Shown here: one piece after another, positions 14,156-32,000 of the stretch
Layout: every line of letters begins with the position of its first letter
Numbering within the stretch: the first letter of the stretch is position 1
Assembly: GCA_000830275.1 (NCBI GenBank)
Contig: CP010424.1
Span: 630,001 to 662,000 of the forward strand
Reading direction: 5' to 3'
Length of the DNA: 32,000 nt
Source of the DNA: an archaeon GW2011_AR10
GTDB lineage: Archaea; Iainarchaeota; Iainarchaeia; Iainarchaeales; GW2011-AR10
Made by a program: the position numbers and the translations under genes
Notes under the pieces: model-generated
The model's input: the letters and a program-made list of their open reading frames with translations, nothing else
Databases searched by the model: none
What the model was told of the DNA's origin: nothing

Positions 14156-14682
14156 GTAACCACCACCAAGTGCATTGGCTTAATAACCCTGTTGTCTTCA
14201 ACTGCAATCGGGTAAATCCTTGCAACAATTTCTTTGTCGGCAAAAAAACGGTAAGCAAAGCTAGGGGAAGAAGAAATGTCGCTGTTAATTGCAGGGTCAA
14301 TGTTGTGGCATGAGAACTCGTTGCCTGCTTCATCCAAGAAAAAGCCCACGTTGTATAGCCTTGCATCCTGGGCATTGTATTGCAGGCTGTATTGGTCTGT
14401 GGCAGTATAATAGTTTGTTATTCCCGCGCGGAATTTAAGGTTTGGAATGCTGAGTGTACTGCACAGCGCTTTGAAGTTCTCGTAGCCACTTATATAGCTT
14501 GTGCCTTTAAGGACTTTGGCAATTTTTATCACTTTGATGTCAGAATCGAACTTGGAGTTTTTATTGTCAAAGACACCGAAAGCGAAAGTAAAGGTTGAAA
14601 AAAACATTATCAGCGCGAAGAGCAGTGGAATCAGGGAAGGCAGGTCATCTCCAATCGGCCCCAAAAAACCTTTATTCAGCAA
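14143..14682 (-). CDS. Pilus-operon accessory protein with an N-terminal hydrophobic anchor (weak pilin-like signal)
   Basis: TTG start overlapping the upstream stop (TTGCTGA). N-terminus LNKG/FLGPIGDDLPSLIPLLFALIMFFSTFTFAF. Confidence 0.65.
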   Translation of the reverse strand: MLNKGFLGPIGDDLPSLIPLLFALIMFFSTFTFAFGVFDNKNSKFDSDIKVIKIAKVLKGTSYISGYENFKALCSTLSIPNLKFRAGITNYYTATDQYSLQYNAQDARLYNVGFFLDEAGNEFSCHNIDPAINSDISSSPSFAYRFFADKEIVARIYPIAVEDNRVIKPMHLVVVTWMP

Positions 14683-15344: not shown

Positions 15345-15346
15345 TG

Positions 15347-15892
15347 TCAAACCCTCTTGTAAACGCAAATCCTTGGCTGCGGGGAGAACAAGTGGAACTG
15401 CTTGATTAAAGTGTACTGGCCGGGCTCAATTGCTTCGTCTTTCTTCCATTCCTTTACTTTAAATTCTGTTGGCTGGTCGTCAAAGTCGTGGCAGACTGTT
15501 GCGGAAGGAAAATCCGTTGCAGAAGAAATGTTAAGACACTTTATTGAACTGAAGTCAGGCGAGGAAAACAAAAGCAGAGTGCATTCATAGCGCAACCCGC
15601 CACAATGAAAAGAGCAAGTGGCCCGGTCATCCCTGCTGACAATCCTCAGCGAGCTATCATTCTGGTTAAAGCAGGACGGCATATCGTATGCAACAGTTTT
15701 TTTGCCTTCGCCTTTTGCAACTGTTTCAAGCGCAGTCTTCAATTCCTCCATGTTCTGGTCAATTTTGCCTTCACACTGCGCTCTCAGCAAAGTGCTCATT
15801 GCATTGAGCCCTACAACTATCACAAAAGTCATTGTTATTACTGCAATCAGCAGCTCGAAAGGGGCTGCTTCCTGGCCTTTCTGGCTGAGCAT
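15347..15892 (-). CDS. Pilin-like protein with an archaeal class III signal peptide
   Basis: From ATG 15892: MLSQKG/QEAAPFELLIAVITMTFVIVVGL. A TATA-like element TTTATATA (complement of 15917-15924) lies about 28 nt upstream. The ORF-track start at 15943 adds a spurious-looking extension. The mature part is Cys-rich. Confidence 0.75.
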   Translation of the reverse strand: MLSQKGQEAAPFELLIAVITMTFVIVVGLNAMSTLLRAQCEGKIDQNMEELKTALETVAKGEGKKTVAYDMPSCFNQNDSSLRIVSRDDRATCSFHCGGLRYECTLLLFSSPDFSSIKCLNISSATDFPSATVCHDFDDQPTEFKVKEWKKDEAIEPGQYTLIKQFHLFSPQPRICVYKRV

Positions 15893-16001
15893 GGTAACAA
15901 GAATACTGTAAAGAGATATATAAAGATTCTCAGAATCAATCAACAGGTATTGAGGGCAAGCATTATGAGCTGTTTGTGTTACTGTAAAAAAACGCAGTGT
16001 T

Positions 16002-16169
16002 TTACTTATTGAAATACTTGGCCTGCTGCCTGCTCCAAACCTTATTCGGAGTTTTTTTCAGCCATTCAGCGTACATGTCGATAAATTCCATGCGCTGCTG
16101 CCTGTTTCTCCTCATTTCCTCTTTAAGCTCTTTCAAATCTTTTTTTGTAAGCTTTAGCCCTTTTCCCAT
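16002..16169 (-). CDS. Small basic protein (55 aa), not in the ORF track
   Basis: Manual translation: MGKGLKLTKKDLKELKEEMRRNRQQRMEFIDMYAEWLKKTPNKVWSRQQAKYFNK*. It fills the gap in the minus-strand operon. The overlapping + strand ORFs 15605..16012 and 15997..16200 have implausible composition. Confidence 0.5.
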   Translation of the reverse strand: MGKGLKLTKKDLKELKEEMRRNRQQRMEFIDMYAEWLKKTPNKVWSRQQAKYFNK

Positions 16170-16328
16170 AAAATTTTCTCCGCCTGCTTTTCAACCCTGA
16201 AATTTTGAAAGCTCTCTTTCAAAAACAATCCTGTTTCCCTTGAATTCCAGTTCCATAAATTAATCTGCCAACAAACTTAATTTAACCATTCTCAAGCAAA
16301 AAAAGTATCCAAGTATTTGAAGTAGTAG

Positions 16329-16487
16329 TCAGTTTATGAGCGGCTGCCTTTTAACTATTTCCTGGCTCTTCTTGAACATTGGCTTAATCAAAGCAATCAG
16401 CAAAAGCGCTGCAATAATAAAAATAATGATTAGGTAAATTGAGCTCCATTCACCCTGCGCCCTTTCACCTAATTCAGGAAATCCCAT
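16329..16487 (-). CDS. Small (52 aa) pilin-like / Flp-like protein, not in the ORF track
   Basis: Manual translation: MGFPELGERA/QGEWSSIYLIIIFIIAALLLIALIKPMFKKSQEIVKRQPLIN*. It has the same [K/R]-[G/A]-Q plus hydrophobic-helix pattern as the neighbouring pilin-like genes. Confidence 0.5.
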   Translation of the reverse strand: MGFPELGERAQGEWSSIYLIIIFIIAALLLIALIKPMFKKSQEIVKRQPLIN

Positions 16488-16533
16488 ATAGAAAAAGAAT
16501 GGAAAAAGAAGTATTTAATGATTGGTGTTAGGT

Positions 16534-17082
16534 TTAACTTGCCGGAATAATGCTTACAAGGCAAATCCTTTCAGTGTTTGAGGGGTCAAATATTGCTGTT
16601 CCACCGCCACAAAAGCTGTTGTAGCCGGAAAACACTGTGTCAAGCCTTGCTTCTAGGACGGTTTCCTCAACCCTGTTCGCGTTATCGCAGAGCACGTATA
16701 GCTTCTGCTGCTGGTCAGAGTTGCCGTTGTAGCGAATCCAAGAGCCTTGAGCAACTTCCTCATAGTTAGGGTTGCTTCCTGAAACAGTGTCAGAAATTAA
16801 AACGCAAAGCTGGTGCTCTCCAAGCGAACCAGTTTTTTCTGCAATTGTCCTTGACCTCAGGCTTGTGCCGTTCTTGAATGTTACTAATCCTGTTCTTTCA
16901 GGCGTGCCCAAATTGTTGATGAGTGTCTTAATTTTTGAGGACGCTTCCTCTGTGGGGTCGCCTTGGCTTGGGGGCGCAATCTGCGTTAAAATCTGCAGCA
17001 GAATTGTGAGAATGAATACTGCAACAATTGCTGCAATCAACAGCTTGAAAACGCTGAAAGCCTGCCCTCTCTCATTCAACAT
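16534..17082 (-). CDS. Pilin-like protein with an archaeal class III signal peptide
   Basis: N-terminus MLNERG/QAFSVFKLLIAAIVAVFILTILLQIL. TATA-like TTTAAATA (complement of 17112-17119) is centred about 33 nt upstream of the ATG. It is a paralog of 17148..17612 (shared ..KGT..A.[KR]TG..Q.CV.I.. block). Confidence 0.8.
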   Translation of the reverse strand: MLNERGQAFSVFKLLIAAIVAVFILTILLQILTQIAPPSQGDPTEEASSKIKTLINNLGTPERTGLVTFKNGTSLRSRTIAEKTGSLGEHQLCVLISDTVSGSNPNYEEVAQGSWIRYNGNSDQQQKLYVLCDNANRVEETVLEARLDTVFSGYNSFCGGGTAIFDPSNTERICLVSIIPAS

Positions 17083-17147
17083 AGCAATCGTAAATAGAAA
17101 CTCTTAACCCATATTTAAAGGTTTTGCTTTAATTCGGCTATAAACAG

Positions 17148-17612
17148 CTAAGGCGTAATTGGTTTAGAGAAAGAGAACTTGCAGCAGATTTCGCAGGTTG
17201 AATCGCAAAAGGAGGCAGGGTCAAGGTTTGTTGTGCACTGCGCGTAAAAGTTTGTTTCAATGCGGTAATTTACCAGTATTCTTTGCGAGTCAACAGTGAA
17301 AGAGGAACTGCTTGGAGCAAGAATTTCAACGCATTGCCCCTCTAATCCTGTTCTTCTTGCAAGAAAATCTTTAGTATAAACTGTGCCTTTGTCGAAGAGG
17401 AGGTTTTCAACAACAAGAATGTCATTGTTTGGCTGCTGCACCGCGTTCTCTAATCCTTCAAGAAAACGCTCTTTGCTCACGTTTATTTTGAACTCCTCAA
17501 AGGAACGGATTGCACCGAGAATTATTAATAAAATCAGCAGCGCAACTATTGCGCCAATCATCATCTTGAACGGCTCAAACTGCCCTTTCTCCATACTAAA
17601 AACATCTCCCAA
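17148..17612 (-). CDS. Pilin-like protein with an archaeal class III signal peptide
   Basis: N-terminus ..MEKG/QFEPFKMMIGAIVALLILLIILGAI. The start is either TTG 17612 or ATG 17594. The C-terminus is Cys-rich. Confidence 0.8.
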   Translation of the reverse strand: MGDVFSMEKGQFEPFKMMIGAIVALLILLIILGAIRSFEEFKINVSKERFLEGLENAVQQPNNDILVVENLLFDKGTVYTKDFLARRTGLEGQCVEILAPSSSSFTVDSQRILVNYRIETNFYAQCTTNLDPASFCDSTCEICCKFSFSKPITP

Positions 17613-17633
17613 TTTTTTTTAGTGTAAAAAACA

Positions 17634-19991
17634 TTAAGCCAAAAATCCGCCGACGAGAATGTTGGAAATAATTATGCTTAAAACGAAAATTATAACTGAA
17701 ATTGGGAAAAAGCGCGCAATGTTTATTCTCACCAGCAAATCGTTGTCCTCCTCTATTTTGGTGGTGAAGTAAGTCATTATGAGGAGAAGCTCCACAACGT
17801 AGATTGCAACGATGATTACGAACTGCGTTGGAGTAGCCATTCCAGCAACTGCTGCCGGGTCAATGAAGCTTCCAACGTTTATGCCAGAAAACGTGTTTGG
17901 AATGCCTGCTCCTCCTGGAACATCAAGGTTGCTCAGATCAAGTTCCGTTGCAATATTGGAAGAAGCGATGGAGGAAAGGGTTATTATTACGATTTTCTGC
18001 AGGCTTGTTGTAATGCCCAAAACCATCGGCGCAATGAATAGGCTCATTGTCTTCATCATTCCTGTTACATCAGAAACCAAAATCTTCAAATTGTTTGCAA
18101 CCTTTTCCGCGTTGTCGAGCTGGATGCTTAACGCAATCATTGTCCTGGCAGCAACGTTCACCCCCAATTGCACTGAATCAACAAGCAGCCTCACTGAACC
18201 GCTAATCAACGAGCTTGGAATGTTTTTCAATGAACCATAGTTTGGGTCAAAGAATGCCTGCTCTAATGGCATTGCAAGCAAGGCAATGTTGTCAAGCGTT
18301 TTCGAGAAAATCCTTTTCGATATTTTGAACTGTGGCAAAAAATCCATTGTGTGCTTTAATGCTTCCTCCACCGGCTTGTTTTCACCCATGCGGGAAGCAA
18401 GAATGTAGATTGAGTCCTTGAACTCTGACTCCATTTCAACAATTTCAAGCTGGGCTTTCCGCTTGTAAATGTTGTTGTAGTAGAGGTAAACAAACACTGA
18501 AAGTGAAACGGTTATGAGCAGGCCGAAAATGAAATTGTAGGGAGTAATATCGTTGGCCGGCTTCGTGAAAAATGCCTGTTCCTCGCTTTTCACGCGTTTC
18601 TCTGCTTCCTCAACAGGAAAACCCTGCGCAATCAGCTCATTGTAAAGCACTCCTGTGGGAATGTCAAAGTATTTCAATTGGTAGCCTGCTTTTGAAAGAA
18701 CTTCAGTCCTTTGCTTGTCTAATGCAAGCAGCTGCGGCGTGCCTTCCTCAAGGCCCAAAGCATCGTAAAGAATTTTTGGCGGAACTCCTTGCTGTGAAAC
18801 AAAAAAGGAAATTGAGCTTCCTGCAATCAACACAACAACAACCACGAAGAAAATGCTCACAAAGCCGTTGCCTAACCTCATTGTGCCCTTCGGCGGCAAA
18901 CCCGGAAAGTTGTCCTTTATTTCAGGCGCAACATACGTTGGTGGGCGCTTGCTTATAACGGAGAAAGCAAACCAAAGCGTAACCAAAGGAATTATTATGT
19001 TGTAAATGGCAAACAAAACAATTGGGTTTGCAAGCGGTGCGCCGCTGAAAGAGCTCCCTACAGGAAGAATGATTATCAGAATCAATGGAAGCAGCACCCC
19101 AACATAGAAGAGAATCATTGTTGGCTGGTTGAGGTCGCGAGCATACTGCTCCATTTTGTTTTTTATTGACTCAAGTATTTCATCCATTGTTTGGTCAAGC
19201 AAAGCAAAACGCTTTGCTTCAGTTGTTTCAATCACTGAAGCGCGGATTCGCATCAACGCTTTCTTGAATTCATCGCTGAATGCACCCCAGCGGTAAGCCA
19301 GTGCATCGCTTGCTTCTGCAACAGACGAGTAAACTCCCAACTGGACATCCCACAAAAGTTTTTTGAAGTCTTCAGCAATTTTGCCCCTGCCGTGCTCTGC
19401 TGCAAACTCAATGCTTTTCTCCAGGTTCGGGCTTAACTTCATTGACATAACCATGTAGCCGAGGATTTCAGGAACATAAGTCAAAGCACGCACCTGCTCT
19501 GCTCTTGCCTCCTCCAAGGGATAGTTTTGAACATAATATGTTGCAAAAACCACCATGCCAAGCAATGGGAGGAGAATGTAGATTGGCGTAAGAAAGGTTG
19601 CCCCGCCAACGAATAGGTTTACAACCACTATTGCAGGGGACAGGAAAATAATTCCTGCAATTACTATTGCAGCAAGAAAGCTCACAATCAGCACGAACTT
19701 GTACGCTGCACCAAGCTCTTCCCCATTTAGCTCCCAACCCAGAAACTCCACTGCCTTCTTGTTCTGCTCTGAAAGCGCTTCACCTTTTCCTAGTGAAGGA
19801 GCCATTGCGTGAATGCGCTTGCAGAACCTAACAAAAGGGTGCTGTTTTCTCCTTACAAGCGTTCTTTCCTCATTCTTGAACTCGTCCTTGACCACGGCTA
19901 TTTCCCTGTAAAGCTCTCCAATAGAGCTTGGCCCATCAAACAGCTTCTCTTCTTCTTCCTGCTCTCTTTCTTCCCTGTCTTTTCTCGCCAT
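17634..19991 (-). CDS. FlaJ/TadC/PilC-like polytopic platform protein (785 aa, two T2SSF-like domains)
   Basis: Many TM helices. Two soluble T2SSF-like segments are present: ..LTYVPEILGYMVMSMKLSPNLEKSIEFAAEHGRGKIAEDFKKLLWDV.. and ..FKDSIYILASRMGENKPVEEALKHTMDFLP... It sits directly downstream of the ATPase. Confidence 0.85.
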   Translation of the reverse strand: MARKDREEREQEEEEKLFDGPSSIGELYREIAVVKDEFKNEERTLVRRKQHPFVRFCKRIHAMAPSLGKGEALSEQNKKAVEFLGWELNGEELGAAYKFVLIVSFLAAIVIAGIIFLSPAIVVVNLFVGGATFLTPIYILLPLLGMVVFATYYVQNYPLEEARAEQVRALTYVPEILGYMVMSMKLSPNLEKSIEFAAEHGRGKIAEDFKKLLWDVQLGVYSSVAEASDALAYRWGAFSDEFKKALMRIRASVIETTEAKRFALLDQTMDEILESIKNKMEQYARDLNQPTMILFYVGVLLPLILIIILPVGSSFSGAPLANPIVLFAIYNIIIPLVTLWFAFSVISKRPPTYVAPEIKDNFPGLPPKGTMRLGNGFVSIFFVVVVVLIAGSSISFFVSQQGVPPKILYDALGLEEGTPQLLALDKQRTEVLSKAGYQLKYFDIPTGVLYNELIAQGFPVEEAEKRVKSEEQAFFTKPANDITPYNFIFGLLITVSLSVFVYLYYNNIYKRKAQLEIVEMESEFKDSIYILASRMGENKPVEEALKHTMDFLPQFKISKRIFSKTLDNIALLAMPLEQAFFDPNYGSLKNIPSSLISGSVRLLVDSVQLGVNVAARTMIALSIQLDNAEKVANNLKILVSDVTGMMKTMSLFIAPMVLGITTSLQKIVIITLSSIASSNIATELDLSNLDVPGGAGIPNTFSGINVGSFIDPAAVAGMATPTQFVIIVAIYVVELLLIMTYFTTKIEEDNDLLVRINIARFFPISVIIFVLSIIISNILVGGFLA

Positions 19992-20005
19992 AAAATGGTT
20001 TCACT

Positions 20006-22285
20006 TCAAGACTTTGTTTTGGCAATTATTCCCTTAATTAAGTGGTTTTTTACCCAGTTCTTCCACTCGCCCAGAACCTCTTCGTAGTCAACGGAACCGT
20101 GTTCTTCAAGCTGGTCCTCCTTCAATAGCATGAGCTTGTTGTTTGCAAGAACCGCGTTTTCTGCTTCAAGCAGAGAAGGAATTGAATTCTTGTTCTTCAT
20201 TTCCACCAAAAACTCTTTTGCCGAGCCATTCATTCTTATGCTCCTCCAGATTTCTTCAAGGTTGAGGCCGCTCATCTTGCTTATCTTTGAGAACATCTCG
20301 CTTTCCTTAAGGTTGTCTTCAAGCAGTTCAAGCTCGTCTTTTTTTGCGTCATAACTCATTAGGTCCAGCAAACCGCCCTCTCTTTCAGGATCCTCAATCC
20401 AGTGCTTTTTCACCTCTGTTATCTGGACAATTCTCCTGTTCCTCTGCAGTGACCCGGAAAACCTTATCGGCCTTGCAACCACGACAACATCAGTTGCCTT
20501 AAACGAAGTGTTTGGAACATCCAAGTCATTCACTACCCTATCCCACACAGAGTAAGCGCTTTCACCGTGGATTGTTCCCATCACAATGTTTCCCGCAGCA
20601 CCAATTCTCATTGCCTCGTACAGAACCCTTGCTTCCTTGCTCCTCACTTCACCTATGATTAGGGCAGAATCTCCCAAACGAAGCGCTGTCCTCAAAGCTT
20701 CCTCTGGCGCAACCTCAGAGGAAGTGCCGCCAGCAGCAATAGGTGAACGCGTTTTAAGCCTCTGGATGTTGAAGCCTATGTTCTTCATGTAAGGAACTGG
20801 AAGTTCCAAGGTGTCTTCCTGCACAATTATTCTCGTGCTCTGGATAATTTCAAGGATTAGTGCCTGCATCAAAGAAGTTTTTCCGCTGCCCCTTGAACCA
20901 GTAACCAGCATTGTTGCCTGTGCGTCAACGAAAAAAGAAAGCAGGCCTGCTGAAAGAGGAGTTAAAAATTTCACGTCAACAAACTGGGGCAGCGTCCAAG
21001 GAGTAACCTTATGCAGCCTGAAAGCAAACGCGATTCCGCTCGGCGCAAGCGGCGGGCCAATGACTGCAACCCTTGTCTCCATGTCAGGCAAATCAAAGTC
21101 CAGGACTGGATGAGCTTCATCAAATGGCCTGCCTGACATTGCACGCATTTTTGATACAAGCGAACTTGCCTCTCCTTCAGTGTAAAGAATGTTGGTTTCG
21201 CACTGGCCAAAGTCAGAGTGAATAACGTAAAGCGGCTTCTGCCCGATGGGAGAATCAATGAAAATGTCTGTGAGGTTCCTGTCAGAGAGCAGCAGTTCAA
21301 GGATTCCGTAGCCGACAGTGTACCTTGCAACAATCTGGCTTAACTCAATTATTTCATCGTTGCCAAGAGAAATATTGTTCTCTTTCGCGATGTCCTTGAT
21401 TGTTGACTGGTAAACGCGCTCAAAGTACTTCCTGCTTTTCGCAAGCTCGCTTAAAGAGGTTTTTCCAGGCCTGTACGATGCAACGATTTCCCTTGTCTTG
21501 CTCAAAATGAAGTACTTGTCCGGGGGCAGGGAATACTCTGGGGGATTGACAATGTAAAGCTTCTGCGGCTTGTTCGGGTGCTTGAATATCTGCACTGTTG
21601 TATCCTTCACTTGGTATTCGTCCAGAAGCTCCAGCTTTTCCTCTTCTTCAAACAGCAGCCTTGAACCGATAAAGGAGGGTTTTACCTGCGCTTCAAAGAA
21701 CGGCTTGTACATTTCTTTTGTGTCAGGAACTGTTTTCAGCTTCAAAAGAATCTGTTTGGCTTTCTGGACAAGCATTGTGCTGTCAAGGTTCTTCTTTATG
21801 TAAAGCAGGGTGCGAAGGTAAACATCAGAGTAATGCTCTTTGTCCTCAGAGCTAAAGCGCTCCCTTTCCTTGCTGATGGCGCGGAGCAGTTCAAGGTAAG
21901 AATAAATCGGGTCAAACAACAGGGTATCGTGAGTGATTTTAACAATAGTGTTGTGCCTTTCACCGAAGTCTTTTTCGCCCTCAATTTTTGCATCCCCTAA
22001 AAACTTGTAGCTCCACACGCTTTCAATCTCTAATTTTTGCGCAACCCTCGAAATTTCCTCCAGAAGCTTTTTCTGCTCCTCGCTGTAAACCCTTTCGTAC
22101 ACTTCAGCCAAAACAATGTCGTCAACTTCCACTTCTTGAAGCAGGCTGAAGACATGGTACCTGCATGCAGGGTCATCAGCGATTGAGGAACTATAAACGC
22201 AGTCGCGACAGTCAAAAATCAGGTGCCTCTTGTTGCCTTCCTCTTTAACCGCCCAAGGGCCTACTTCAAAACCGCCGATTTTCAA
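20006..22285 (-). CDS. Type IV pilus/archaellum-family assembly ATPase (FlaI/PilB-like, 759 aa) with a long N-terminal extension
   Basis: Walker A GSRGSGKTS, Asp box RIIVQEDTLE, Walker B ALIIGEVRSKE, His box GTIHGES. TTG start preceded by AGGTGA with a 6-nt spacer. N-terminal Cys cluster FDCRDCVYSSSIADDPACRYH. Confidence 0.9.
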   Translation of the reverse strand: MKIGGFEVGPWAVKEEGNKRHLIFDCRDCVYSSSIADDPACRYHVFSLLQEVEVDDIVLAEVYERVYSEEQKKLLEEISRVAQKLEIESVWSYKFLGDAKIEGEKDFGERHNTIVKITHDTLLFDPIYSYLELLRAISKERERFSSEDKEHYSDVYLRTLLYIKKNLDSTMLVQKAKQILLKLKTVPDTKEMYKPFFEAQVKPSFIGSRLLFEEEEKLELLDEYQVKDTTVQIFKHPNKPQKLYIVNPPEYSLPPDKYFILSKTREIVASYRPGKTSLSELAKSRKYFERVYQSTIKDIAKENNISLGNDEIIELSQIVARYTVGYGILELLLSDRNLTDIFIDSPIGQKPLYVIHSDFGQCETNILYTEGEASSLVSKMRAMSGRPFDEAHPVLDFDLPDMETRVAVIGPPLAPSGIAFAFRLHKVTPWTLPQFVDVKFLTPLSAGLLSFFVDAQATMLVTGSRGSGKTSLMQALILEIIQSTRIIVQEDTLELPVPYMKNIGFNIQRLKTRSPIAAGGTSSEVAPEEALRTALRLGDSALIIGEVRSKEARVLYEAMRIGAAGNIVMGTIHGESAYSVWDRVVNDLDVPNTSFKATDVVVVARPIRFSGSLQRNRRIVQITEVKKHWIEDPEREGGLLDLMSYDAKKDELELLEDNLKESEMFSKISKMSGLNLEEIWRSIRMNGSAKEFLVEMKNKNSIPSLLEAENAVLANNKLMLLKEDQLEEHGSVDYEEVLGEWKNWVKNHLIKGIIAKTKS

Positions 22286-23809: not shown

Positions 23810-24367
23810 ATGCACAAAAAATTTGAATTTCTGAGTAAAACTTTTTCAGAGAAAGAAATACTTAAAGCAGGAAAGTTTCTTTTGGGCTTAGCTGCATACT
23901 TCATTGCGCTGAGCTTTCTTGTTTCACTGGTGCCGCTGGAATTGGTTGAATTCTTTTTTGCATCAGTTTCACTTTTCTTTCTTGGGTTTTTTGGCTTTTC
24001 GGGAGAACTGGTTTTCACGGAACCAGTTATCATGCAATTGCAGGGCTTGGAGCAAGGAATTGCAATAACCTATCTTTGCACTGGCCTGCTGGAACTGGTG
24101 CTGCTTGTTTCAGCTGTTGCCTCCTCGTTCGGCATTGAATGGAAAAAAAGAATTATTGGAGTTATTGCTGGCGCAATTGCATTGGTTGCGTTCAACGTTT
24201 TCAGGATAGTTTCAAGCATTCTGATTATTCTTTGGTTTGGTTTGGAGGCAGGTGGCTTTTCGCATGACCTGTTGTTCAGGGTTTTTTTGTTTGCAACCGT
24301 TGCCGGCTACTATTTTGTGTGGTTTAACTGGGCCACAAGACTAAAAAAACTGAATTCCACCTTATAG
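23810..24367 (+). CDS. Minimal exosortase/archaeosortase-family protein (185 aa)
   Basis: A multi-TM protein carrying the family's three signature positions in the expected order and spacing: Cys90 in ITYLCTGLLEL (C-[ST]-G), Arg132 in AFNVFRIV (N-x-x-R), and His152 in GGFSHDLLF. Confidence 0.75.
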   Translation: MHKKFEFLSKTFSEKEILKAGKFLLGLAAYFIALSFLVSLVPLELVEFFFASVSLFFLGFFGFSGELVFTEPVIMQLQGLEQGIAITYLCTGLLELVLLVSAVASSFGIEWKKRIIGVIAGAIALVAFNVFRIVSSILIILWFGLEAGGFSHDLLFRVFLFATVAGYYFVWFNWATRLKKLNSTL

Positions 24368-24730
24368 CATTATAGTGTTTTCTCCTTCAAAGTGTTTGTC
24401 CCCAGTAACAATCGGCAGATTGTACTGCTTTGCTGTTGCAAGAATGATTGCATCAATTAAACCAAAATCCTTGAAGTTTTTTCTTTTTTCTATTTTTAAT
24501 ATACCTGATGTTTCCAATTGTTCTTGGTTGACTTCGATAATTGTAGACAGGTTTTTAACAATGTGAAAAATTTTTTGCCGGTTAAGTTTGCTTTTTTCAA
24601 CCCACTCGCTCAGCTCTGCAATAGAAATAGCACTTGTGAAACACTGGTTATTAGCAATAACTTCTTTTACTTTTAGGCCCCTGCTAGTACCATTAAATAA
24701 TTCAATCCAAGCATATGTATCCAAAAGCAC
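24362..24730 (-). CDS. vapC: PIN-domain toxin (VapC-like)
   Basis: GTG start abutting the antitoxin stop. N-terminal LLDTYAWIE (first acidic residue). ..GLIDAIILATAKQYNLPIVTGDKHF.. is typical of a PIN C-terminus. Confidence 0.8.
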   Translation of the reverse strand: MLLDTYAWIELFNGTSRGLKVKEVIANNQCFTSAISIAELSEWVEKSKLNRQKIFHIVKNLSTIIEVNQEQLETSGILKIEKRKNFKDFGLIDAIILATAKQYNLPIVTGDKHFEGENTIML

Positions 24731-24949
24731 TTAAAACACTCTGTCTTTGTGGTCTCGCCTAAAGGGTTTTGCATTTTTTACAGAACCAAATGCTTTTTCA
24801 AGTAAAGAGATGTCTTTTTTAATAACAGCCAACTGTATTTTCTCCCCCTCGCCGATTTTTTCCTGTTTTACTACCTCCTTTGGAATCAGAGCACCCCAAG
24901 AACTCCCAACCTTTCTAAGCTTGGTTTCAAAAACCTGCACAAAAATCAC
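24731..24949 (-). CDS. vapB: AbrB/SpoVT-type antitoxin (VapB-like)
   Basis: ..TKLRKVGSSWGALIPKEVVKQEKIGEGEKIQLAV.. is a swapped-hairpin AbrB-like motif. The gene sits immediately upstream of the PIN gene. Confidence 0.7.
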   Translation of the reverse strand: MIFVQVFETKLRKVGSSWGALIPKEVVKQEKIGEGEKIQLAVIKKDISLLEKAFGSVKNAKPFRRDHKDRVF

Positions 24950-25131: not shown

Positions 25132-25716
25132 GTGAATTTGTTGGAGAAGCGCTATAGAAACCTCGCCCTGTTAGTGGTTGCAGTAATAGTTTTAGCTTTG
25201 GCTTGGCTTCTTTTTTCCTCTGTTTCCTTTGAGTCAAAGCTCTCGGAAATTGATGCAGTGTGGAAAGAAAACGGCCTTAGCGTGGCTGGTTTTCCTTACC
25301 GAAATTCACAGGAATTTGACGCGCTCAGCCTGCAGGAAATTGAGTCACTGAAGGAAAGGCTTGGCAGGGTTGAGCCGGCAAGAATTGAATCAGTTGAACA
25401 GTTTGTGGCATTAAACAAAAAGCTGTTGGCTCTTGCAACCGCTAGGAAACTTTTGGAGGAAAAAGTTCTTGCAATCGAATCAACAGCAGGCATATGCAGT
25501 GAACTCAGCCTTCTTGATGAACTGCTAGAAGCCCAAAGGGAAGTGAACGAAAAATCAAAATCGTTTGTTGGAAGCTACAATTTGTTCGTTGAGTCTTTTC
25601 CTAGGGAAGCCGAGACAGCATCGCTTCCACAAATTGAGGACAACGGCCTTGAACTGGAGTTCCTGCTCGCGCAACAGGAGGAAAATGCTGCAGCAGTCAG
25701 GGGTGAGTGCGCTTGA
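25132..25716 (+). CDS. N-terminally anchored ~195-aa two-Cys protein (paralog of 29884..30477)
   Basis: TM anchor LALLVVAVIVLALAWLLF. Blocks shared with the paralog: LSLQEIESLKERL vs LSSAELAELKVEL; an internal Cys (GICSEL vs DYCSNI); SFVGSY vs SFVGKY; and a C-terminal G-x-C (GECA* vs GAC*). Confidence 0.75.
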   Translation: MNLLEKRYRNLALLVVAVIVLALAWLLFSSVSFESKLSEIDAVWKENGLSVAGFPYRNSQEFDALSLQEIESLKERLGRVEPARIESVEQFVALNKKLLALATARKLLEEKVLAIESTAGICSELSLLDELLEAQREVNEKSKSFVGSYNLFVESFPREAETASLPQIEDNGLELEFLLAQQEENAAAVRGECA

Positions 25717-28700
25717 AGAAAAAACCTTTATTCTTGCTTTTGCTGCTTGCACTGCTTTTAACTGCCGCTAACGCAGAAGCACAAATTGCTGCCTCTGAGT
25801 GGAATGAAGGCGTTATTGCAACCAGCTTCAGCTGCAGGAAAAGCAACTGCGTTGCATTGCCCTCTCGTTTGGCTTTAGGCAAGAGAGTTGAGGTGTGCTC
25901 TTCCAAAGGATGCGTGACCGCGGTTGTAGCAGATGTTGGGCCTTGGTGCAGGCAGGATGACCCCTACGTGCTTGGCAACAGCAGGCCTTTTGCTGAGCAG
26001 CGTGCAGGAGAAAACCTTGATGATGCATTAAAATTTCCTGAAGCAGGAGAGGACACCTTGGACTGCAGAACTAACCCGAAAGTTGGAGGGCCTATTCCAA
26101 GGAAAAGCAACGGCGCAGGCATTGACTTATCGGTTGATGTTGACAGGGAACTAGGCAACAACGGAAAAGGAATTGTGAGCTGGAGGTTCATTGATGATCC
26201 AACCAATTCGCTGTTGAAATTGATTGACACTGCAAGAAAATCCCAGCAGGAGTCAATTCCAAATATTTTTTCGGCTTCAATTAGTTCAGGCGCTCCGCTT
26301 GACTTCTTCAGGGGCAAAACAGTTCTTATTGATGTAGGGCACGGTGGAAGGGATCCCGGCGCAGTTTTCACCACCAAAAACGGGCAGACAGTGAACGAGA
26401 AGGACATGGCACTCTCGTATTCAAATAAACTCAAAGAAGTGCTTGAATCAAACGGGGCGAGGGTTTTGATGACAAGGGAAACCGATGTTTACCTTTCCTT
26501 GAGCGAAAGGGTTGACATCATTAACAGGGAAAAACCTGATGTTGCAATTTCAATGCACATTAACTCTGCAAGGCTGCCTGTTTTCAGGGGCACACCACTG
26601 GTTTTCGTGGCATGCCTTTTCAGGGAGGAGGGCAAAAACGGCAACGGCTTGGTTGACATAGCAGAATTTGCCTCATTTAACCAGTTGTGCCAGCCTAACC
26701 CTGCTGAAAGCCACCAAGGCAGCGTAATAGTGGCATCGAACGTTACAAACAAGTTAAGCGGGTTTCTTACCGGAATGCGCGTAGCTGATGCAACTGTTCT
26801 GGTTAGGTCAAATTCTCCTGTTGTGTTGTTTGAGGTTGGCTTTGGCTCGAACAAGGATGAACTTGAAAGAATGCTGACTCCATTGCACCAGACAACCATA
26901 ACTCTTGGCTTGGCAGCAGCAATACAGGATTACCTTGGAAAAACGAAAAAGGCAGCAGTAACTGGAACCGAGCTGAAGGAAATTGAGCTGGAGGAAGAAC
27001 TGGATTATGTTGTGCTGAACTTTGGTGACCTAAGCGAACTCGAAAGGAGGGGGGTGCCAAACCCAATCACTTCAATTGCAAGCGGCACAAAATTCTACAA
27101 GAACGGGAACGAAGTGGATGCGTTCGCAACTTCGATTGTTCCTGATTCGGCTGGCAGCGAAAACAAGCTGGCAGTGTACAGGCTGCAACAGTACTCATCA
27201 TACAATTTTGAGGTGAAGCTCACAGGCTACTTTGACAACAAGGTGATTGGCACAGGAAGCTTTGGGCCTATTCCTGGAAAGGCAAAGCCGGAGCTAAACG
27301 CAAATGTAAAGTGGAATTTTGCAGGGGAAGCAGCAGGCAATGTTGCTCCAACCGCTGTTGCAAATGACATAAATGCAGTGAAAGGAAAAGCGGTTTTGCT
27401 TGACGCTTCAAGGTCTTTTGACTCCGATGGAACAATTGAAGGTTACTTGTGGCTTGATTCAAGTCACCCGGATGAAAGCCCTGCAAATGGGAAAAGAGTT
27501 GCAGAGGCAACTGTTTCAGCTGTGTTTAACACTTTGGGAGAGCACCTTGTAATTCTTTACGTAACAGATGACAAGGGGGCAACCGGCTCGGAAACTTTTT
27601 ACGTGAATGTAGCCAAGGAACAAGAAGGCATAGTGGAAGAAGGAGCTCCGAGGATTGAGAGACTTGTGCTGAATTATGAGTATTCTTTACGAATCAGATA
27701 CAACGAGGACGGCACTATCAGGGAAACAGATGTTATTTCCCTGCAGCTCGGAAAAAACCAATTAATCTCTGCCGCGTTTTATTCCCCTGTTGAGTTTTAT
27801 CGCGCGCAACTTGAGCTCTGGGCATTCCAGGAGGGAATTACTCCAAGCGCGGCAAGCATTGAGAGGAGAATGATAATTGCGGCTGATGAACGAGGCACTA
27901 ATGCTCATGAGGCAGGCACTGACATATTGGTGCCAATTGATGAGGGAAAAATTGTCAGCCTAGACGAAATAGATTACGGAAAAATTGGGACAGGGCAGTG
28001 GAACAGTTCAGTGAAAGAGTTCGTGCAAAAATTCAAGGACAACCAGTATTATTTTAGGGTTGAAACAAGGATTGAAAAGGAAAGCAATGGTAAAAAGGTT
28101 GGCTCACAATTCGTGCCGGTAAGCATATCCTTGTTTGAGGAGCTTCCGCGCATTGAGAGCTGCAGTTCCATTAGGGAGTGCCTTGCCCGCGGCAGCCAGA
28201 TTGTTTCCAACAGTCTTTTGAGGGCAGGCGAACAGGCAGAAGATTTTGAGGGCTTGAAGTGCGTGCAATTAGAGGAAGGAAAGCAGCTGGATGTTGTCAG
28301 TGCTCCATGCATTTCAGCTGAAAGGATTGATGAAATCCTTGCAGCAAACGATTCTCCGGCAGCTGGAACAGGAAAGGCATTCTATGATTACGGTTTAAAG
28401 TACGGCATTGACCCAACAGTTGCCTTGGCTTTCTTTAGGGAAGAGTCAACTTTCGGAAAGTTTGGGGCAGCAAACAGGACAAAATCAATCGGCAACATCA
28501 GGTATTACGATACTGCTGACCCAAATGATGCTGCTTACTGCCCAACGCAGAGAAATGACAATGGATTCTGCTCTTATGACAGCTGGGAGCAAGGCATCGA
28601 GCACTTCTACAAGTACATTAATGGCCCGCTTTACGTTGCAGCAGGCAACAATACTCTGGAGGAAATAGTGCCAATTTACATTTCCGCTTCTTCAACTGAA

Positions 28701-28757
28701 ACAAGCAGCATCATCAGCAAAATGAGAAGCTGGTTGGCTGAGTGGAGGGAACAGTAG
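25707..28757 (+). CDS. Secreted multi-domain peptidoglycan hydrolase: DPBB/RlpA-like, N-acetylmuramoyl-L-alanine amidase (Amidase_3), PKD-like, and a C-terminal glucosaminidase/lysozyme-like domain
   Basis: Signal peptide KKKPLFLLLLLALLLTAANAEA. DPBB-like: LPSRLALGKRVEVCSSKGCVTAVVADVGPW..GAGIDLSVDV. Amidase_3 hallmarks: LIDVGHGGRDPGAV, NEKD, PDVAISMHINS, VLFEVGFGSN. PKD-like: LLDASRSFDSDGTIEGYLW..ILYVTDDKGATGSETFYVNV. C-terminus: GIDPTVALAFFREESTFGKFG..IGNIRYY..FCSYDSWEQGIEHFYKYI. The start is GTG 25707 or TTG 25713; the latter has GGGGTGA 6 nt upstream. The start overlaps the upstream gene. Confidence 0.85.
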   Translation: MRLKKKPLFLLLLLALLLTAANAEAQIAASEWNEGVIATSFSCRKSNCVALPSRLALGKRVEVCSSKGCVTAVVADVGPWCRQDDPYVLGNSRPFAEQRAGENLDDALKFPEAGEDTLDCRTNPKVGGPIPRKSNGAGIDLSVDVDRELGNNGKGIVSWRFIDDPTNSLLKLIDTARKSQQESIPNIFSASISSGAPLDFFRGKTVLIDVGHGGRDPGAVFTTKNGQTVNEKDMALSYSNKLKEVLESNGARVLMTRETDVYLSLSERVDIINREKPDVAISMHINSARLPVFRGTPLVFVACLFREEGKNGNGLVDIAEFASFNQLCQPNPAESHQGSVIVASNVTNKLSGFLTGMRVADATVLVRSNSPVVLFEVGFGSNKDELERMLTPLHQTTITLGLAAAIQDYLGKTKKAAVTGTELKEIELEEELDYVVLNFGDLSELERRGVPNPITSIASGTKFYKNGNEVDAFATSIVPDSAGSENKLAVYRLQQYSSYNFEVKLTGYFDNKVIGTGSFGPIPGKAKPELNANVKWNFAGEAAGNVAPTAVANDINAVKGKAVLLDASRSFDSDGTIEGYLWLDSSHPDESPANGKRVAEATVSAVFNTLGEHLVILYVTDDKGATGSETFYVNVAKEQEGIVEEGAPRIERLVLNYEYSLRIRYNEDGTIRETDVISLQLGKNQLISAAFYSPVEFYRAQLELWAFQEGITPSAASIERRMIIAADERGTNAHEAGTDILVPIDEGKIVSLDEIDYGKIGTGQWNSSVKEFVQKFKDNQYYFRVETRIEKESNGKKVGSQFVPVSISLFEELPRIESCSSIRECLARGSQIVSNSLLRAGEQAEDFEGLKCVQLEEGKQLDVVSAPCISAERIDEILAANDSPAAGTGKAFYDYGLKYGIDPTVALAFFREESTFGKFGAANRTKSIGNIRYYDTADPNDAAYCPTQRNDNGFCSYDSWEQGIEHFYKYINGPLYVAAGNNTLEEIVPIYISASSTETSSIISKMRSWLAEWREQ

Positions 28758-28817
28758 GCCAAAAAATTTGGAAAATAGGATATATTTTAGTTAAAGTCGG
28801 AGTATAAGTGTATTGTA

Positions 28818-29699
28818 ATGGCAGCAAAGAGGAAAACAGGGAAAGAGAGCTTAGCCAGAATATTGGTTAAAGGAACTGGGAACAGCATTTGGTTCACAGC
28901 AAAGGCTCCGTTCACGGCAGGCTGGTGGGTTTCAAAGAAAGGCGTAAAGGCAACAGGGTGGCTTGCCAAGAAGGGCACAAAAGCAGGAAGTTGGTTGGGA
29001 AAAAAAGGAGTTAAGGCTAGCGCAGTTGCAGGGGCTTGGGCGGGAAAGAAGACAGCGTCGGCTATGAAGAGGCTCATAAAAAGCCCTTACGTTAGGTCTG
29101 CTGGCGCCGGGGTTATTGTTTACCAGTTTCCCAGCACAACCATTAAGCTGATTTTAACTGGAGTAAAATGGAGCGCAATTGGGGCTTACACTTTTCCAGG
29201 CGTGGTGATTCCAGCTGCCCTCGGTGCCGGAACATACCACTACTTTAAGGACGCCAGGAGAAGAAAGGTTATCTGGCAGTTGGTTTCAGCAGGGAAAGAC
29301 CTTGCATGGGAAAGGATTGGCGGCAAGCTGTTCATTAAGGGTGGTGACGGAAAAAATCGTTTCAGGTGGAGCCCAACGGAACTCATAGTGTTGGCTACTG
29401 AAAGGGCAAGGAAAGGGATAGCAGGGAGAAGAGAGACCAGGGAGGCCAGGCAAAGGCTTTTGAAGGCATTGGATGAACCAAGCATGAAAAAATTTGTTTC
29501 TGGAATCAGAAAGGAAATTGAAGCGATTCATAGTAGGGCTGCAAGGAAGGCAAAAGCAGTTAGTGGCCAATCAATAGTTGATGGCGCGGAAGTGCTCAAT
29601 GAAACCAGAAAAATCAAAGCCATCTTTACTGGAAAGTTCGAAAGGAAAACTGGAATAAAGCTGAGTGAAAGGCAGGTTGATGAAATTTTGAGCGGGTGA
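28818..29699 (+). CDS. Hypothetical protein with N-terminal Trp/Lys 11-aa tandem repeats, a central hydrophobic segment and a basic C-terminal domain
   Basis: Repeats: WVSKKGVKATG / WLAKKGTKAGS / WLGKKGVKASAVAGA / WAGKKTASAMK (nt 28926-29069). Hydrophobic region ..AGAGVIVYQF..GVVIPAALGAGTYHYF. No signal peptide. Confidence 0.7.
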   Translation: MAAKRKTGKESLARILVKGTGNSIWFTAKAPFTAGWWVSKKGVKATGWLAKKGTKAGSWLGKKGVKASAVAGAWAGKKTASAMKRLIKSPYVRSAGAGVIVYQFPSTTIKLILTGVKWSAIGAYTFPGVVIPAALGAGTYHYFKDARRRKVIWQLVSAGKDLAWERIGGKLFIKGGDGKNRFRWSPTELIVLATERARKGIAGRRETREARQRLLKALDEPSMKKFVSGIRKEIEAIHSRAARKAKAVSGQSIVDGAEVLNETRKIKAIFTGKFERKTGIKLSERQVDEILSG

Positions 29700-29705
29700 A
29701 CAATT

Positions 29706-29831
29706 AAATATAGCAAAACGCTTAAGTAATTGAACATTGAAACAAAACGCTTAAGTAATTGAACATTTAAATTGCATTTTGCATCTAGCAAACAGCAATA
29801 AAAAGTTCAAAAATATAAGCTGTTTGCTATA
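29706..29831 (+). promoter_or_regulatory. Conserved upstream module, copy B: a 25-nt tandem direct repeat plus the 11-bp inverted repeat TAGCAAACAGC(29786-29796)/GCTGTTTGCTA(29819-29829)
   Basis: Aligns by eye with the reverse complement of 10485-10588. caaaacgcttaagtaattgaacatt occurs twice (29714-29738 and 29743-29767). Copy A has a single, diverged copy. Confidence 0.7.
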
Positions 29832-29883
29832 CAATAAACTTAGTAATGTTAAGTAATGGAATGCTGTGGGTTAAGGTGGTTGG

Positions 29884-30477
29884 TTGGATAAGAGATGGAA
29901 AAACCTGTTGCTCTTGGGGGTTTTAATTCTGGTTGTTGCAGCTGCGGCATTTATTATTCTTCAGCCAGGACCTGGAAGGGCAAAGACGTTTGGAGAGGGG
30001 TTTGAGGAAATGAAAGCATTTTTTGCAGGAAAAGGAATTGATGCCGGGGCGTTAGACATTGAGGACTTGGCTGCTCTGTCTTCGGCTGAACTTGCAGAGC
30101 TAAAAGTTGAGTTGCAGTCTTTTGCAAGTTCGTTTAATGGGCCTGGCTCTGCAAAAGAGCTTGCGGGAGTTTATGTTTCAGCAATTGATTTGGGGGCCAA
30201 GTCAAAAGCGCAGGGCAAAAAAACCAACCAAATTGATGCCCTCAGCCTGCAGGACTACTGTTCAAACATTGTGCTGTTCAAGGAAAGGGATTCACTGGAG
30301 GAGGAAAAAATTGGTTTGCTGGAGCAATTGAAAACAAATATTAATTCTTTTGTTGGAAAGTACTCAAATGAGGCACAGCAGATAGGGCTTAAACCGCTTG
30401 AAGTGGACATTGAAGCGCTGCGCTCTGCAAATGGTGAGAGAGCAACGGTAACAGCGCAGCTAGAGGGAGCATGCTGA
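29884..30477 (+). CDS. N-terminally anchored ~195-aa two-Cys protein (paralog of 25132..25716)
   Basis: TTG start with AAGGTGG 4 nt upstream. TM anchor LLLLGVLILVVAAAAFIIL. The blocks shared with 25132..25716 are listed under that feature. Confidence 0.75.
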   Translation: MDKRWKNLLLLGVLILVVAAAAFIILQPGPGRAKTFGEGFEEMKAFFAGKGIDAGALDIEDLAALSSAELAELKVELQSFASSFNGPGSAKELAGVYVSAIDLGAKSKAQGKKTNQIDALSLQDYCSNIVLFKERDSLEEEKIGLLEQLKTNINSFVGKYSNEAQQIGLKPLEVDIEALRSANGERATVTAQLEGAC

Positions 30478-30487
30478 GTGATTTGAA

Positions 30488-31933
30488 ATGAACAGAAAAG
30501 TTTTTGCGCTTGCAGCGTTCTTGTTTTTTGCTGTTCTGGTTTTACCAAGTGCATTCGCGCTTCAGAGCTGCGCTTTTGCTTATGACTTGGGCGTTAACGG
30601 GCAGTTTAATCTGCCGAATTACTGCGGAATGAACCTCAATCAGAAAATTGAGTTCAAATACCCTGTTCCGGAAAGGAACTATTCGGTTACTGTCTTCTCG
30701 TTGAGGTTGATTAGATTCAATCAGAATAAGGCAGGAACATATTTACCATTTAACGATGACAGCTGGTCGTTCCTTATTGAAAATGATTTGTTTGGAACAA
30801 GAGGCGAATTTGTTATCAATGAAGACACTACTGATTCCCGAGGAATAGGCAGGGGGATTGGAACAATTTCAATATATGTTGACTCACAGTCAGCTGATTT
30901 TGCTTCACAGATTGAGAGGTTGACCATTAACTTTGACAGCAGGCAAATATACGAGCAGTTGAACAAACGCGTGGCAGAAGGAGAGTCTTCTCTTGGAGAG
31001 TTGGTTGGCTTTGGGGAAAATTTCACCCCTAATTTGCCTGCAACTCAAGGCGGCCAGTGCCAGCCGGCTTACACTGTTCCGAGCAGCGGAAAATTCAGGC
31101 TGCCACAGCCTTGCACAGCGGTTCCCGGCCAGCAAATTTCTTTCATGTTCAGGCAGACAGAGTTAAGTTCTCCTGTTGAATTGTTTGTTTTAAGGTATGA
31201 AAACATAAGGCCAGATTCTTTGGATTATTGGTATGACAATGATTTGCTTGAGTTCTCTGTGATTGACAGGCTCACAGGCCAAAGAAATGTTTTGAACGCG
31301 GAGGAAAATCAGGGTGGCTCTTCTAAAGTGGGAAATTATGCTGGGGTTTTCCTTAATGCAGACACCATTACTGAGGCAGGCTCGATTAAGGTGAAGAACC
31401 TTAACATTGAAATTTACCCACAAGAACTCAGCGGACTGACATCAGAGTTTCCTGGTTTGCTTGAACAGGTTAGCTCCAATAAAGTTGATGAAAAAACCAA
31501 AGCAGCAATTAATGCAAAGTTTGCAAACGATGAGGCAGCAGATGATTCAGAGGGAATTGCCGTTGCCGTGAAGGATTCAACATCAAAAACCTCAGGAGAT
31601 GCCTGGGCTTCATCTCCTCCAAAAAAAGGAACTTATGTTTGGGCTTGGCAGCTTGAAGGCGCGACAATTCAGCAGCTTAATGATAACAAGGAAAAAGTTA
31701 CAATAAAGCAGGAAGTCGGCAGCGAGTTTGTTGAAACCAGTGTTCCAATAAATGTTTCATCCTCGTTCAAAGACACAGAAGGAAACGATGTCGTGGGGGC
31801 ATTTTACCTGGTGGAATTCAGGGACGCGGGAAAATACAGGGTTTTGGTTGAAGGGCAGGTTGTGAAAAACTTGCTGGTGTTCGTGAAAAGCGGCAATACG
31901 GGGTATGAGATAATAAAGCTCACGGGGCAGTGA
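30488..31933 (+). CDS. Secreted protein with an internally duplicated N-terminal domain
   Basis: Signal peptide MNRKVFALAAFLFFAVLVLPSAFA. Two homologous modules begin CAFAYDLGVNGQFNLPNYCGMNLNQKIEFKY and CQPAYTVPSSGKFRLPQPCTAVPGQQISFMF. Starts 10 nt after the paralog gene. Confidence 0.75.
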   Translation: MNRKVFALAAFLFFAVLVLPSAFALQSCAFAYDLGVNGQFNLPNYCGMNLNQKIEFKYPVPERNYSVTVFSLRLIRFNQNKAGTYLPFNDDSWSFLIENDLFGTRGEFVINEDTTDSRGIGRGIGTISIYVDSQSADFASQIERLTINFDSRQIYEQLNKRVAEGESSLGELVGFGENFTPNLPATQGGQCQPAYTVPSSGKFRLPQPCTAVPGQQISFMFRQTELSSPVELFVLRYENIRPDSLDYWYDNDLLEFSVIDRLTGQRNVLNAEENQGGSSKVGNYAGVFLNADTITEAGSIKVKNLNIEIYPQELSGLTSEFPGLLEQVSSNKVDEKTKAAINAKFANDEAADDSEGIAVAVKDSTSKTSGDAWASSPPKKGTYVWAWQLEGATIQQLNDNKEKVTIKQEVGSEFVETSVPINVSSSFKDTEGNDVVGAFYLVEFRDAGKYRVLVEGQVVKNLLVFVKSGNTGYEIIKLTGQ

Positions 31934-31937: not shown

Positions 31938-32000
31938 ATGAAAAACAAAATCTTTGTTGCAGTTGCAGTTGTTTTGCTTGCAGTACTGGTTTTCGCAGCT
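31938..32000 (+). CDS. Start of another secreted or anchored protein (truncated by the window end)
   Basis: ATG 4 nt after the previous stop. MKNKIFVAVAVVLLAVLVFAA is signal-peptide-like and the frame is open to the window edge. Confidence 0.5.
   Translation, partial: MKNKIFVAVAVVLLAVLVFAA

Follow-up and report, generated by a model that had tools for sequence, protein, structure and literature searches.

The 32,000-nucleotide stretch of the genome of archaeon GW2011_AR10 that we analysed (positions 630,001 to 662,000 of contig CP010424.1; referred to below, at its full length, as the window) encodes on its plus strand two small membrane-anchored proteins, adaptors A and B, each of which is directly followed by the gene for a large exported protein, its cargo. 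Judged by profile comparison, the two adaptors are anciently diverged members of one real family, and the arrangement of adaptor and exported protein recurs wherever members of that family could be assessed in context. DPANN archaea presumably live in attachment to other cells, and their surface equipment is largely unexplained. The reading that we favor, with confidence a little short of even, is that each adaptor tethers its cognate exported protein, which lacks an anchor, to the membrane, so that adaptor and cargo would constitute a two-component means of surface display. An earlier note on this DNA had described a modular unit made up of a small anchored protein with two cysteines and a large exported protein, and both profile homology and the loci examined here support that description. 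The features of the two cassettes are as follows.

25141..25716, plus strand: adaptor A, 191 aa from the likely TTG start at 25141 (the maximal open reading frame, 25132..25716, begins at the GTG at 25132).
25713..28757, plus strand: cargo 1, an exported murein hydrolase of 1014 aa from the TTG at 25713, with a signal peptide, 14 cysteines and no C-terminal anchor.
~26322-26927, plus strand: Amidase_3 domain of the hydrolase (Pfam, 8e-34).
~27339-27611, plus strand: PKD domain of the hydrolase (Pfam, 4e-8).
28161..28250, plus strand: C-x5-C 'CLA' module within the hydrolase (ESCSSIRECLARGSQIV...), after which comes the glucosaminidase-like domain.
~28374-28637, plus strand: C-terminal glucosaminidase-like domain of the hydrolase (Glucosaminidase, 6e-5, under the Pfam cut-off).
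28818..29699, plus strand: basic, cysteine-free protein of 293 aa with hydrophobic segments and W/K/G-rich repeats (GWLAKKGTKAGSWLGKKGVKA), upstream of adaptor B.
29714..29771, no strand: a 29-nt direct repeat present twice in tandem (CAAAACGCTTAAGTAATTGAACATTGAAA; the copies are 97% identical), intergenic, upstream of adaptor B.
29884..30477, plus strand: adaptor B, 197 aa, starting at a TTG that AAGGTGG precedes by 4 nt, with the N-terminus MDKRWKNL.
30488..31933, plus strand: cargo 2, a signal-peptide protein of 481 aa with no Pfam domain and no C-terminal anchor.
31938..32000 (the part within the window), plus strand: third gene of cassette 2, encoding a signal-peptide protein of 501 aa.

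The full length of this last protein, whose presence the earlier note had also recorded, comes from L001, a 67.4-kb metagenome contig that is 99% identical to the window and extends it downstream. The open reading frames at 25132..25716 and 29884..30477 exist as the note described them. For adaptor A the likely true start is the TTG at 25141, which has AGGTGA 5 nt before it and gives the N-terminus MEKRYRNL, matching that of the family; adaptor B most probably starts at the TTG at 29884.

The earlier note had called A and B clear paralogs. They are indeed members of one family, albeit distant ones, but pairwise alignment, one of the checks that the note had put forward, gave no significant similarity when used alone. 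In particular, the BLASTP comparison of A with B had an E value of 0.86, Smith–Waterman alignment without the transmembrane (TM) segment gave a z score of ~3.9 with a reversed-sequence control scoring about equal, and phmmer gave 11 bits. Searching for homologs of A and of B by word index yielded near-identical proteins only, and the same kind of search with a 140-sequence profile returned three matches only, its candidate selection having been swamped; broad alignments of the family contain no conserved stretch of 7-10 columns. By contrast with the pairwise tests, alignment at the level of profiles was highly significant. When all of 1.84 billion cluster representatives were scanned by HMMER with a joint profile of A and B, 198 clusters matched at E<=1e-3, of which 81 reached E<=1e-10; nearly all of the 198 are 186-215 aa in length and aligned end to end. 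Moreover, a hidden Markov model (HMM) built from 142 members excluding A and B gave scores of 185 bits for B and 127 bits for A, whereas controls (100 shuffled and two reversed sequences) scored at most 8 bits. The homology of A and B is established only via the family profile. The two are among the most distant pairs of the family, and each is far closer to relatives in other organisms (A to P0008 at 52 bits, B to P0005 at 125 bits), which argues that they are ancient paralogs and not the products of a recent tandem duplication. Were the likeness of A and B merely compositional, as between two unrelated proteins that each consist of a TM segment plus helices and that belong to no real family, one would expect just such a BLASTP value and a reversed control that scores about as well as the real alignment. 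That account is refuted, however, by the profile search and the leave-out scores, and it is further contradicted by an invariant cysteine pair at fixed spacing, a high-confidence common fold and conserved synteny; we give it next to no credence.

The family has a simple anatomy. Its members have a single N-terminal hydrophobic segment of ~20 aa and none beyond aa 70, and A and B conform: each carries, as the earlier note had it, an N-terminal anchor. A K/R-rich flank precedes this segment in both. The uncharged stretch is 23 aa long from residue 9 in A and 19 aa long from residue 8 in B, with three K/R residues before each. Across the family the N-terminal flank has 2.1 K+R against 0.6 D+E, and the ectodomain is acidic (17% D/E). 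This positive-inside charge bias, the acidic ectodomain and the presence of two invariant cysteines together indicate an N-in/C-out topology. The start M-[DE]-K-R-[WY]-[RK]-N is found in 41 of 144 members, a subfamily that includes A and B, and in at least four members (P0062, P0071, P0123 and P0125) a lipobox such as VLSGC or FFSGC stands in place of the TM segment; the conserved trait is therefore an extracytoplasmic domain that is tethered to the membrane. The LS(L/S)xE(I/L)xxLK motif that the note had seen in both proteins agrees with the family consensus LSxxE(I/L)xxLK. A second motif that it listed as shared, SFVG(S/K)Y, did not survive alignment: the two instances are five residues out of register, and it is LFVESFPREA of A that aligns with SFVGKYSNEA of B, within the family motif F..xYPxEA. 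As a separate observation, P0002, a JGI metagenome protein of 169 aa, is near-identical to adaptor A with a clean 23-aa deletion (AGFPYRNSQEFDALSLQEIESL) that takes out the conserved LSxxELxxLK helix; the shorter form may exist in nature as a deletion allele, or it may have come about through misassembly.

Both cysteines that the earlier note had pointed out proved to be family invariants, the internal one being present in 144/144 members and the C-terminal one, which lies 0-6 residues from the end of the protein, in 142/144. Most members have exactly two cysteines, and 95 of 135 members have them spaced 71 residues apart. Adaptor B has this spacing, with its second cysteine as the last residue, and adaptor A has a spacing of 72, with the second cysteine penultimate (the internal cysteine of A lies in AGICSEL and the penultimate one in GECA, before the stop codon). 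In each protein the anchor is followed by helices. An AlphaFold2 model of adaptor B, made with a multiple sequence alignment (MSA) of 140 sequences, has a predicted local distance difference test score (pLDDT) of 95.1 and a predicted TM-score (pTM) of 0.81, and consists of a TM helix (residues 3-25), a 10-residue linker and a helical bundle (helices 36-48, 59-63, 67-83, 88-118, 126-159, 161-166 and 176-196). Adaptor A, modeled from a 2-sequence MSA, has a pLDDT of 62 and the same order of helices, a signal-anchor followed by a helical ectodomain. Mean-field direct coupling analysis of the family alignment, which is small (effective number of sequences, Meff, 144), ranked the residue pair 133-194 second, 126-197 fourth and 132-193 fourteenth. 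These couplings bring the C-terminus to the beginning of helix 126-159, which fits a disulfide within the molecule. We infer that the two invariant cysteines (Cys126 and Cys197 in B) form such a disulfide and would staple the C-terminus onto the start of this long helix.

The earlier note did not recognize the adaptor family, and neither did any curated library. There was no Pfam match common to any two of 140 members, no significant NCBIfam, PHROG or PADLOC match to the adaptors, and no PDB sequence match; in Foldseek searches with the adaptor fold the best PDB match had E=0.67 (TM-score <=0.35) and the best BFVD match E=0.92. The family is thus uncharacterised and without an entry in the curated libraries searched (Pfam, NCBIfam, PHROG, PADLOC and PDB); where the source names its members, it is as hypothetical or uncharacterized proteins.

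In the window, as the note had stated, a large signal-peptide protein directly follows each adaptor: the stop codon of A and the start codon of the hydrolase share 4 nt (TTGA at 25713-25716), and 10 nt separate the stop codon of B from the ATG of cargo 2. Loss of this linkage among homologs had been set beforehand as a result that would refute the arrangement; in a survey of downstream genes the linkage was kept at 22 of 22 assessable loci. The adaptor genes in question were the two in the window, two in tandem in L002/L003, and one each in 18 other loci of archaeal genome assemblies and metagenomes (L004, L009, L010, L012, L019, L021, L024, L045, L054, L069, L070, L072, L075, L076, L078, L079, L080 and L081). 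At each of the 22 the next same-strand open reading frame was large and had a signal-peptide-like hydrophobic N-terminus, that of L078 being rather of the pilin or TM type, and it was at least 380 aa long where the contig permits and up to 1265 aa. In 19/22 cases the downstream start lay within -25 to +10 nt, typically in a 4-nt ATGA overlap. The cargos of L045, L019 and L069 are orthologous (70-74% identity), so about 20 of the 22 loci are independent.

Linkage extends beyond adjacency. Locus L002 has two tandem cassettes, as the window does, and in L072, a syntenic locus, every gene of cassette 2 has a counterpart (basic protein, adaptor, cargo and third protein), with adaptor, cargo and third gene kept at 28-38% identity. 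The L072 adaptor, P0005, is 38% identical to B; the cargo that likewise follows it (626 aa) matches the 481-aa protein with an E value of 7e-54; a 245-aa homolog of the 501-aa protein occupies the same position; and the 236-aa protein that precedes the adaptor is 27% identical to the 293-aa basic protein of the window (E 5e-11). The latter, which has no Pfam or NCBIfam match, is possibly a fourth member of cassette 2. In P0133, moreover, an adaptor domain is fused to a 1753-aa protein, an arrangement found in two independent assemblies (the suggestion that this fusion also contains the 293-aa basic protein was not supported). In the layout of these loci the adaptor gene is translationally coupled to the downstream gene for an exported protein, and adaptor and cargo are co-inherited. 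Aside from these genes, a protein of ~254 aa that is transcribed divergently always precedes the adaptor in three loci of one sub-lineage (L069 7069-7830, L070 7080-7847 and L071 368-1132, all on the minus strand), where it conserves the pattern M.KV.GK.I.L..EE...GEG.E.E.IPN.KG.F...DK; it is absent from the window.

The cargos themselves are strikingly unlike one another. Recognizable domains are Amidase_3, PKD and glucosaminidase in the window, Laminin_G_3 in L002, thrombospondin-3 (TSP3) repeats in L081 and a weak fn3 in L072; the remaining cargos have no Pfam match. The Amidase_3 match bears out the identification of the first partner as a murein hydrolase, a protein that also matches endolysin PHROGs, and the 481-aa partner is duplicated as the note had said (z=10.6), with one pair of cysteines per repeat (Cys28/46 and Cys191/209). 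Peptidoglycan (PG)-lytic domains recur in the cassettes, namely in the hydrolase of the window, in an SLT protein in L004 and in a glucosaminidase-like protein that follows the P0133 fusion (L073). Adaptors like A are not specific for hydrolases, however, as the nearest relatives of A, P0008 and P0029, precede a TSP3 protein and an unannotated protein. What the complete cargos have in common (13/13) is a signal peptide, no C-terminal TM segment and an even number of cysteines in the mature part. Such proteins lack any anchor themselves, and no cysteine is left over for a covalent link to the adaptor, which disfavors a disulfide between adaptor and cargo.

One protein of most adaptor cassettes contains a module of ~30 aa, the CLA module, which is made up of a C-x5-C loop and a short helix and has the pattern C-[STDNL]-[ST]-[IV]-x-[EQG]-C-[LK]-A-x-[IMT]-[DG]-[KRW]-[KL]-[FLI]-[VLQ]. 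In most cases 20-48 aa separate it from the C-terminus. Instances lie within the following positions.

28161-28250 of the window: within the hydrolase.
L001 12055-13560 (the gene that starts at 31938 of the window): aa 482-501, at the C-terminus of the 501-aa protein (GECSTIRQCLAITDKKFVERLG).
L003 5374-6681.
L004 4230-5279.
L072 8736-9473.
L076 10628-12352.
L078 9455-10462.

In the window hydrolase the module is internal and stands right before the glucosaminidase-like domain, and the domain after it is homologous to the separate 293-aa protein of L073 (E 3e-18). The internal position of the module suggests that the hydrolase is a fusion product, in which a protein that ended in the module was joined to a lysozyme-like protein once separate from it. 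The CLA module could be a docking signal.

How would the adaptor act? If it is a tether, it would be made 1:1 with its cognate cargo and would bind that cargo non-covalently just outside the membrane, and the bound cargo would thereby be retained on the archaeal surface. In the window, one adaptor would display a multi-domain hydrolase of bacterial murein and the other a duplicated-domain protein, a surface display that would fit a small symbiotic or predatory archaeon armed against bacterial neighbors. We prefer the tether because cargos as different as these have only the need of anchoring in common, and because adaptor domain and large protein are one chain in the P0133 fusion; a surface protein encoded elsewhere in the window (5613-10442) has, unlike the cargos, its own C-terminal TM segment. 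Several points weigh against this preference. An all-against-all BLAST of 16 cargo and cassette proteins found no domain common to all, and no motif adjoining the signal peptide is common to the cargos. The linker between TM segment and bundle is only ~10 aa, which would hold the domain at the membrane face and so suit a chaperone close to the Sec pore as well as a tether. The alignment behind the disulfide geometry is small (Meff 144). For a PG hydrolase, moreover, action as a freely released enzyme is just as conceivable. A bolder extension, which we regard as unlikely, makes the adaptor the membrane receptor of a new surface-display system of Iainarchaeota/DPANN archaea, one in which cognate Sec-exported sets would be captured partly via a C-terminal CLA module (core C-[ST]-[ST]-[IV]-x-[EQ]-C-L-A-x-I-D-K-K-F-V, in proteins that include the window hydrolase and the 501-aa protein), arming the surface with murein hydrolases and adhesins against bacterial hosts.

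The earlier note had offered anchoring, a chaperone and an immunity or inhibitor protein as possible functions. The chaperone is the main rival of the tether, and we consider it a real possibility with clearly less in its favor: a dedicated extracytoplasmic chaperone or holdase, like Lif/LipH or CpaB, would bind its client transiently at the Sec pore, aid its folding or disulfide formation, and release it. The gene logic of the cassettes is that of Lif-lipase and CpaB-CpaA (a protein with an N-terminal TM segment and helices outside the cytoplasm, encoded in one operon with its single client; PMC13381987, PMC7046727, PMC4713064), the 10-aa linker holds the domain at the membrane face, the cargos are large and rich in cysteine, and the P0133 fusion could be an intramolecular chaperone. 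However, the adaptors have no similarity to Lif (PF03280) or to any chaperone family, and the clients are very diverse, beta-rich and adhesin-like (PKD, LamG, TSP3 and fn3-like), of a kind normally without need of private foldases; a chaperone would also leave the cargos, none of which has other means of staying on the cell, without a hold there. An inhibitor, immunity or latency factor that silences a harmful exported enzyme until contact or release is the least likely of the three, and in our estimation improbable. It would accord with the recurrent PG-lytic domains and with a translational coupling as tight as is typical of toxin-immunity pairs. Archaea are not known to have murein, however, and no self-protection would be required; most cargos have no hydrolase domain, including those preceded by P0008 and P0029, the nearest relatives of A, and no PADLOC match was obtained.

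A phage-type lysis accessory is, in effect, refuted. On that account the adaptor would be an i-spanin (Rz-like) or a holin beside an endolysin-like gene, and the superficial resemblance is plain: Rz of phage lambda has an N-terminal TM segment, a helical periplasmic part, one internal cysteine and one penultimate cysteine, and the window hydrolase matches endolysin PHROGs. Yet neither A nor B matches a PHROG spanin or holin, comparison of the family with lambda Rz by hhalign gave a probability of 0.4%, no BFVD fold match was found, and no family member was seen on viral contigs in IMG/VR with the probes used. Nor is there an o-spanin partner, as no embedded or adjacent small lipoprotein open reading frame appears among those listed for the region. 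The cargos are mostly non-lytic, and the neighborhood is cellular (pilus genes in the window; ribosomal proteins, FtsZ and SecDF in related loci). Rz and the adaptors thus lack homology, and a murein-hydrolase neighbor is shared with Rz by adaptor A only.

An anchored partner gene beside an exported client is a known logic, here carried by an uncharacterised family whose predicted fold has no known match. Lif/LipH (Lipase_chap) and the Acinetobacter type II secretion system (T2SS) chaperones LipB/CpaB are type II membrane proteins with an all-helical extracytoplasmic domain, and their genes adjoin that of one exported client (PMC13381987, PMC7046727, PMC4713064). The adaptors resemble Lif in having an N-terminal TM segment and a helical extracytoplasmic domain and in lying beside one exported client, but no Lipase_chap match was found for A, B or the 140 members, and no PDB sequence or fold match. 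They differ, too, in size (~200 aa against ~340 aa for Lif), in their invariant cysteine pair, in gene order (the adaptor gene is upstream of its client, that of Lif downstream), and in their clients, which are highly diverse and include no family I.1/I.2 lipase, whereas those of Lif form a single enzyme class. The adaptors, moreover, are archaeal, with no outer membrane or T2SS export step. Functionally akin to the proposed tether is the SlaA/SlaB pair of Sulfolobales, in which a small membrane-anchored helical subunit holds a large, anchorless, Sec-exported protein encoded in the same operon (PMC6911244, PMC10903991). SlaB has an N-terminal Sec signal, a C-terminal TM segment and a long trimeric coiled-coil stalk with beta domains, whereas the adaptors have an N-terminal anchor, a ~10-aa linker and, in the model, a compact bundle. 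SlaA and SlaB are also one lattice-forming pair, whereas the adaptors occur as many paralogous pairs per lineage with unrelated cargos. As for the hydrolase, it is of the same kind as the murein hydrolases and lytic transglycosylases reported from DPANN and other archaea and proposed to target bacteria (PMC10936187, PMC12352652); a term search of these two papers did not turn up any small, coupled membrane protein.

The distribution of the family points to cellular archaea. We scanned GTDB species genomes with a degenerate DNA pattern for MDKRWRN and filtered the matches by HMM, which left members in archaeal metagenome-assembled genomes (MAGs) only, two of them labelled Ca. Iainarchaeum; about 54 bacterial matches of the DNA pattern were due to chance and were removed by the HMM. 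Where the sources of members are named, they are MAGs called 'Candidatus Diapherotrites archaeon', 'Candidatus Iainarchaeum sp.' or 'archaeon', and the neighbors at related loci are archaeal housekeeping genes (S3Ae, S15, FtsZ, CarS, FEN1 and SecDF). On these grounds the family is DPANN-archaeal (Iainarchaeota/Diapherotrites). With at least 198 clusters, a fold without a match in PDB or BFVD and a genetic wiring to exported proteins, it marks candidate proteins of interaction or attack. With the adaptor HMM one might accordingly flag surface effectors in the genomes of Iainarchaeota, where they mostly lack annotation, and a two-gene mechanism for holding exported proteins on the cell is both simple and testable.

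Upstream of the cassettes the window contains the following features.

13370-17612, minus strand: five small proteins with class-III-signal-like N-termini and several cysteines each, part of a pilus-like locus.
17634-19991, minus strand: T2SSF-like membrane protein, 785 aa, part of the same locus.
20006-22285, minus strand: FlaI/T2SSE-type ATPase, 759 aa, with a long N-terminal extension.
23810-24367: exosortase/archaeosortase-family protein, 185 aa (TIGR04178, 4.5e-10), ~800 nt upstream of adaptor A.
24362-24949: VapBC pair.

By gene content, the minus-strand region 13370-22285 is an archaeal type IV pilus-like locus. The 1609-aa surface protein encoded at 5613-10442 (minus strand) ends in ...PENPVVLALFIVSLIAVFVYIRREKN, that is, in a motif, a TM segment and a basic tail, and this tail looks like a candidate sorting signal for the archaeosortase-like protein. 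In L073, too, a small gene of this exosortase-like type is found close to the adaptor fusion. A link of the adaptors to the archaeosortase-like gene or to the pilus locus was considered and rejected, as other loci have unrelated neighbors and the cargos lack C-terminal sorting signals; in a search for such a signal (motif, TM segment and basic tail), neither the adaptors nor the 13 complete cargos had a C-terminal TM segment. Between the cassettes, one arm of the 29-nt tandem repeat pairs imperfectly with 29802-29831, and the repeat may be a binding site for a regulator. Just past the end of the window, L001 encodes a RelE/ParE-like toxin-antitoxin pair (13642-14102) and, at 14682-20594, a surface protein longer than 2834 aa with Big_1, CarboxypepD_reg and SdrD_B matches, and giant proteins like this one stand on both sides of the adaptor cassette in the Iainarchaeum locus L076.

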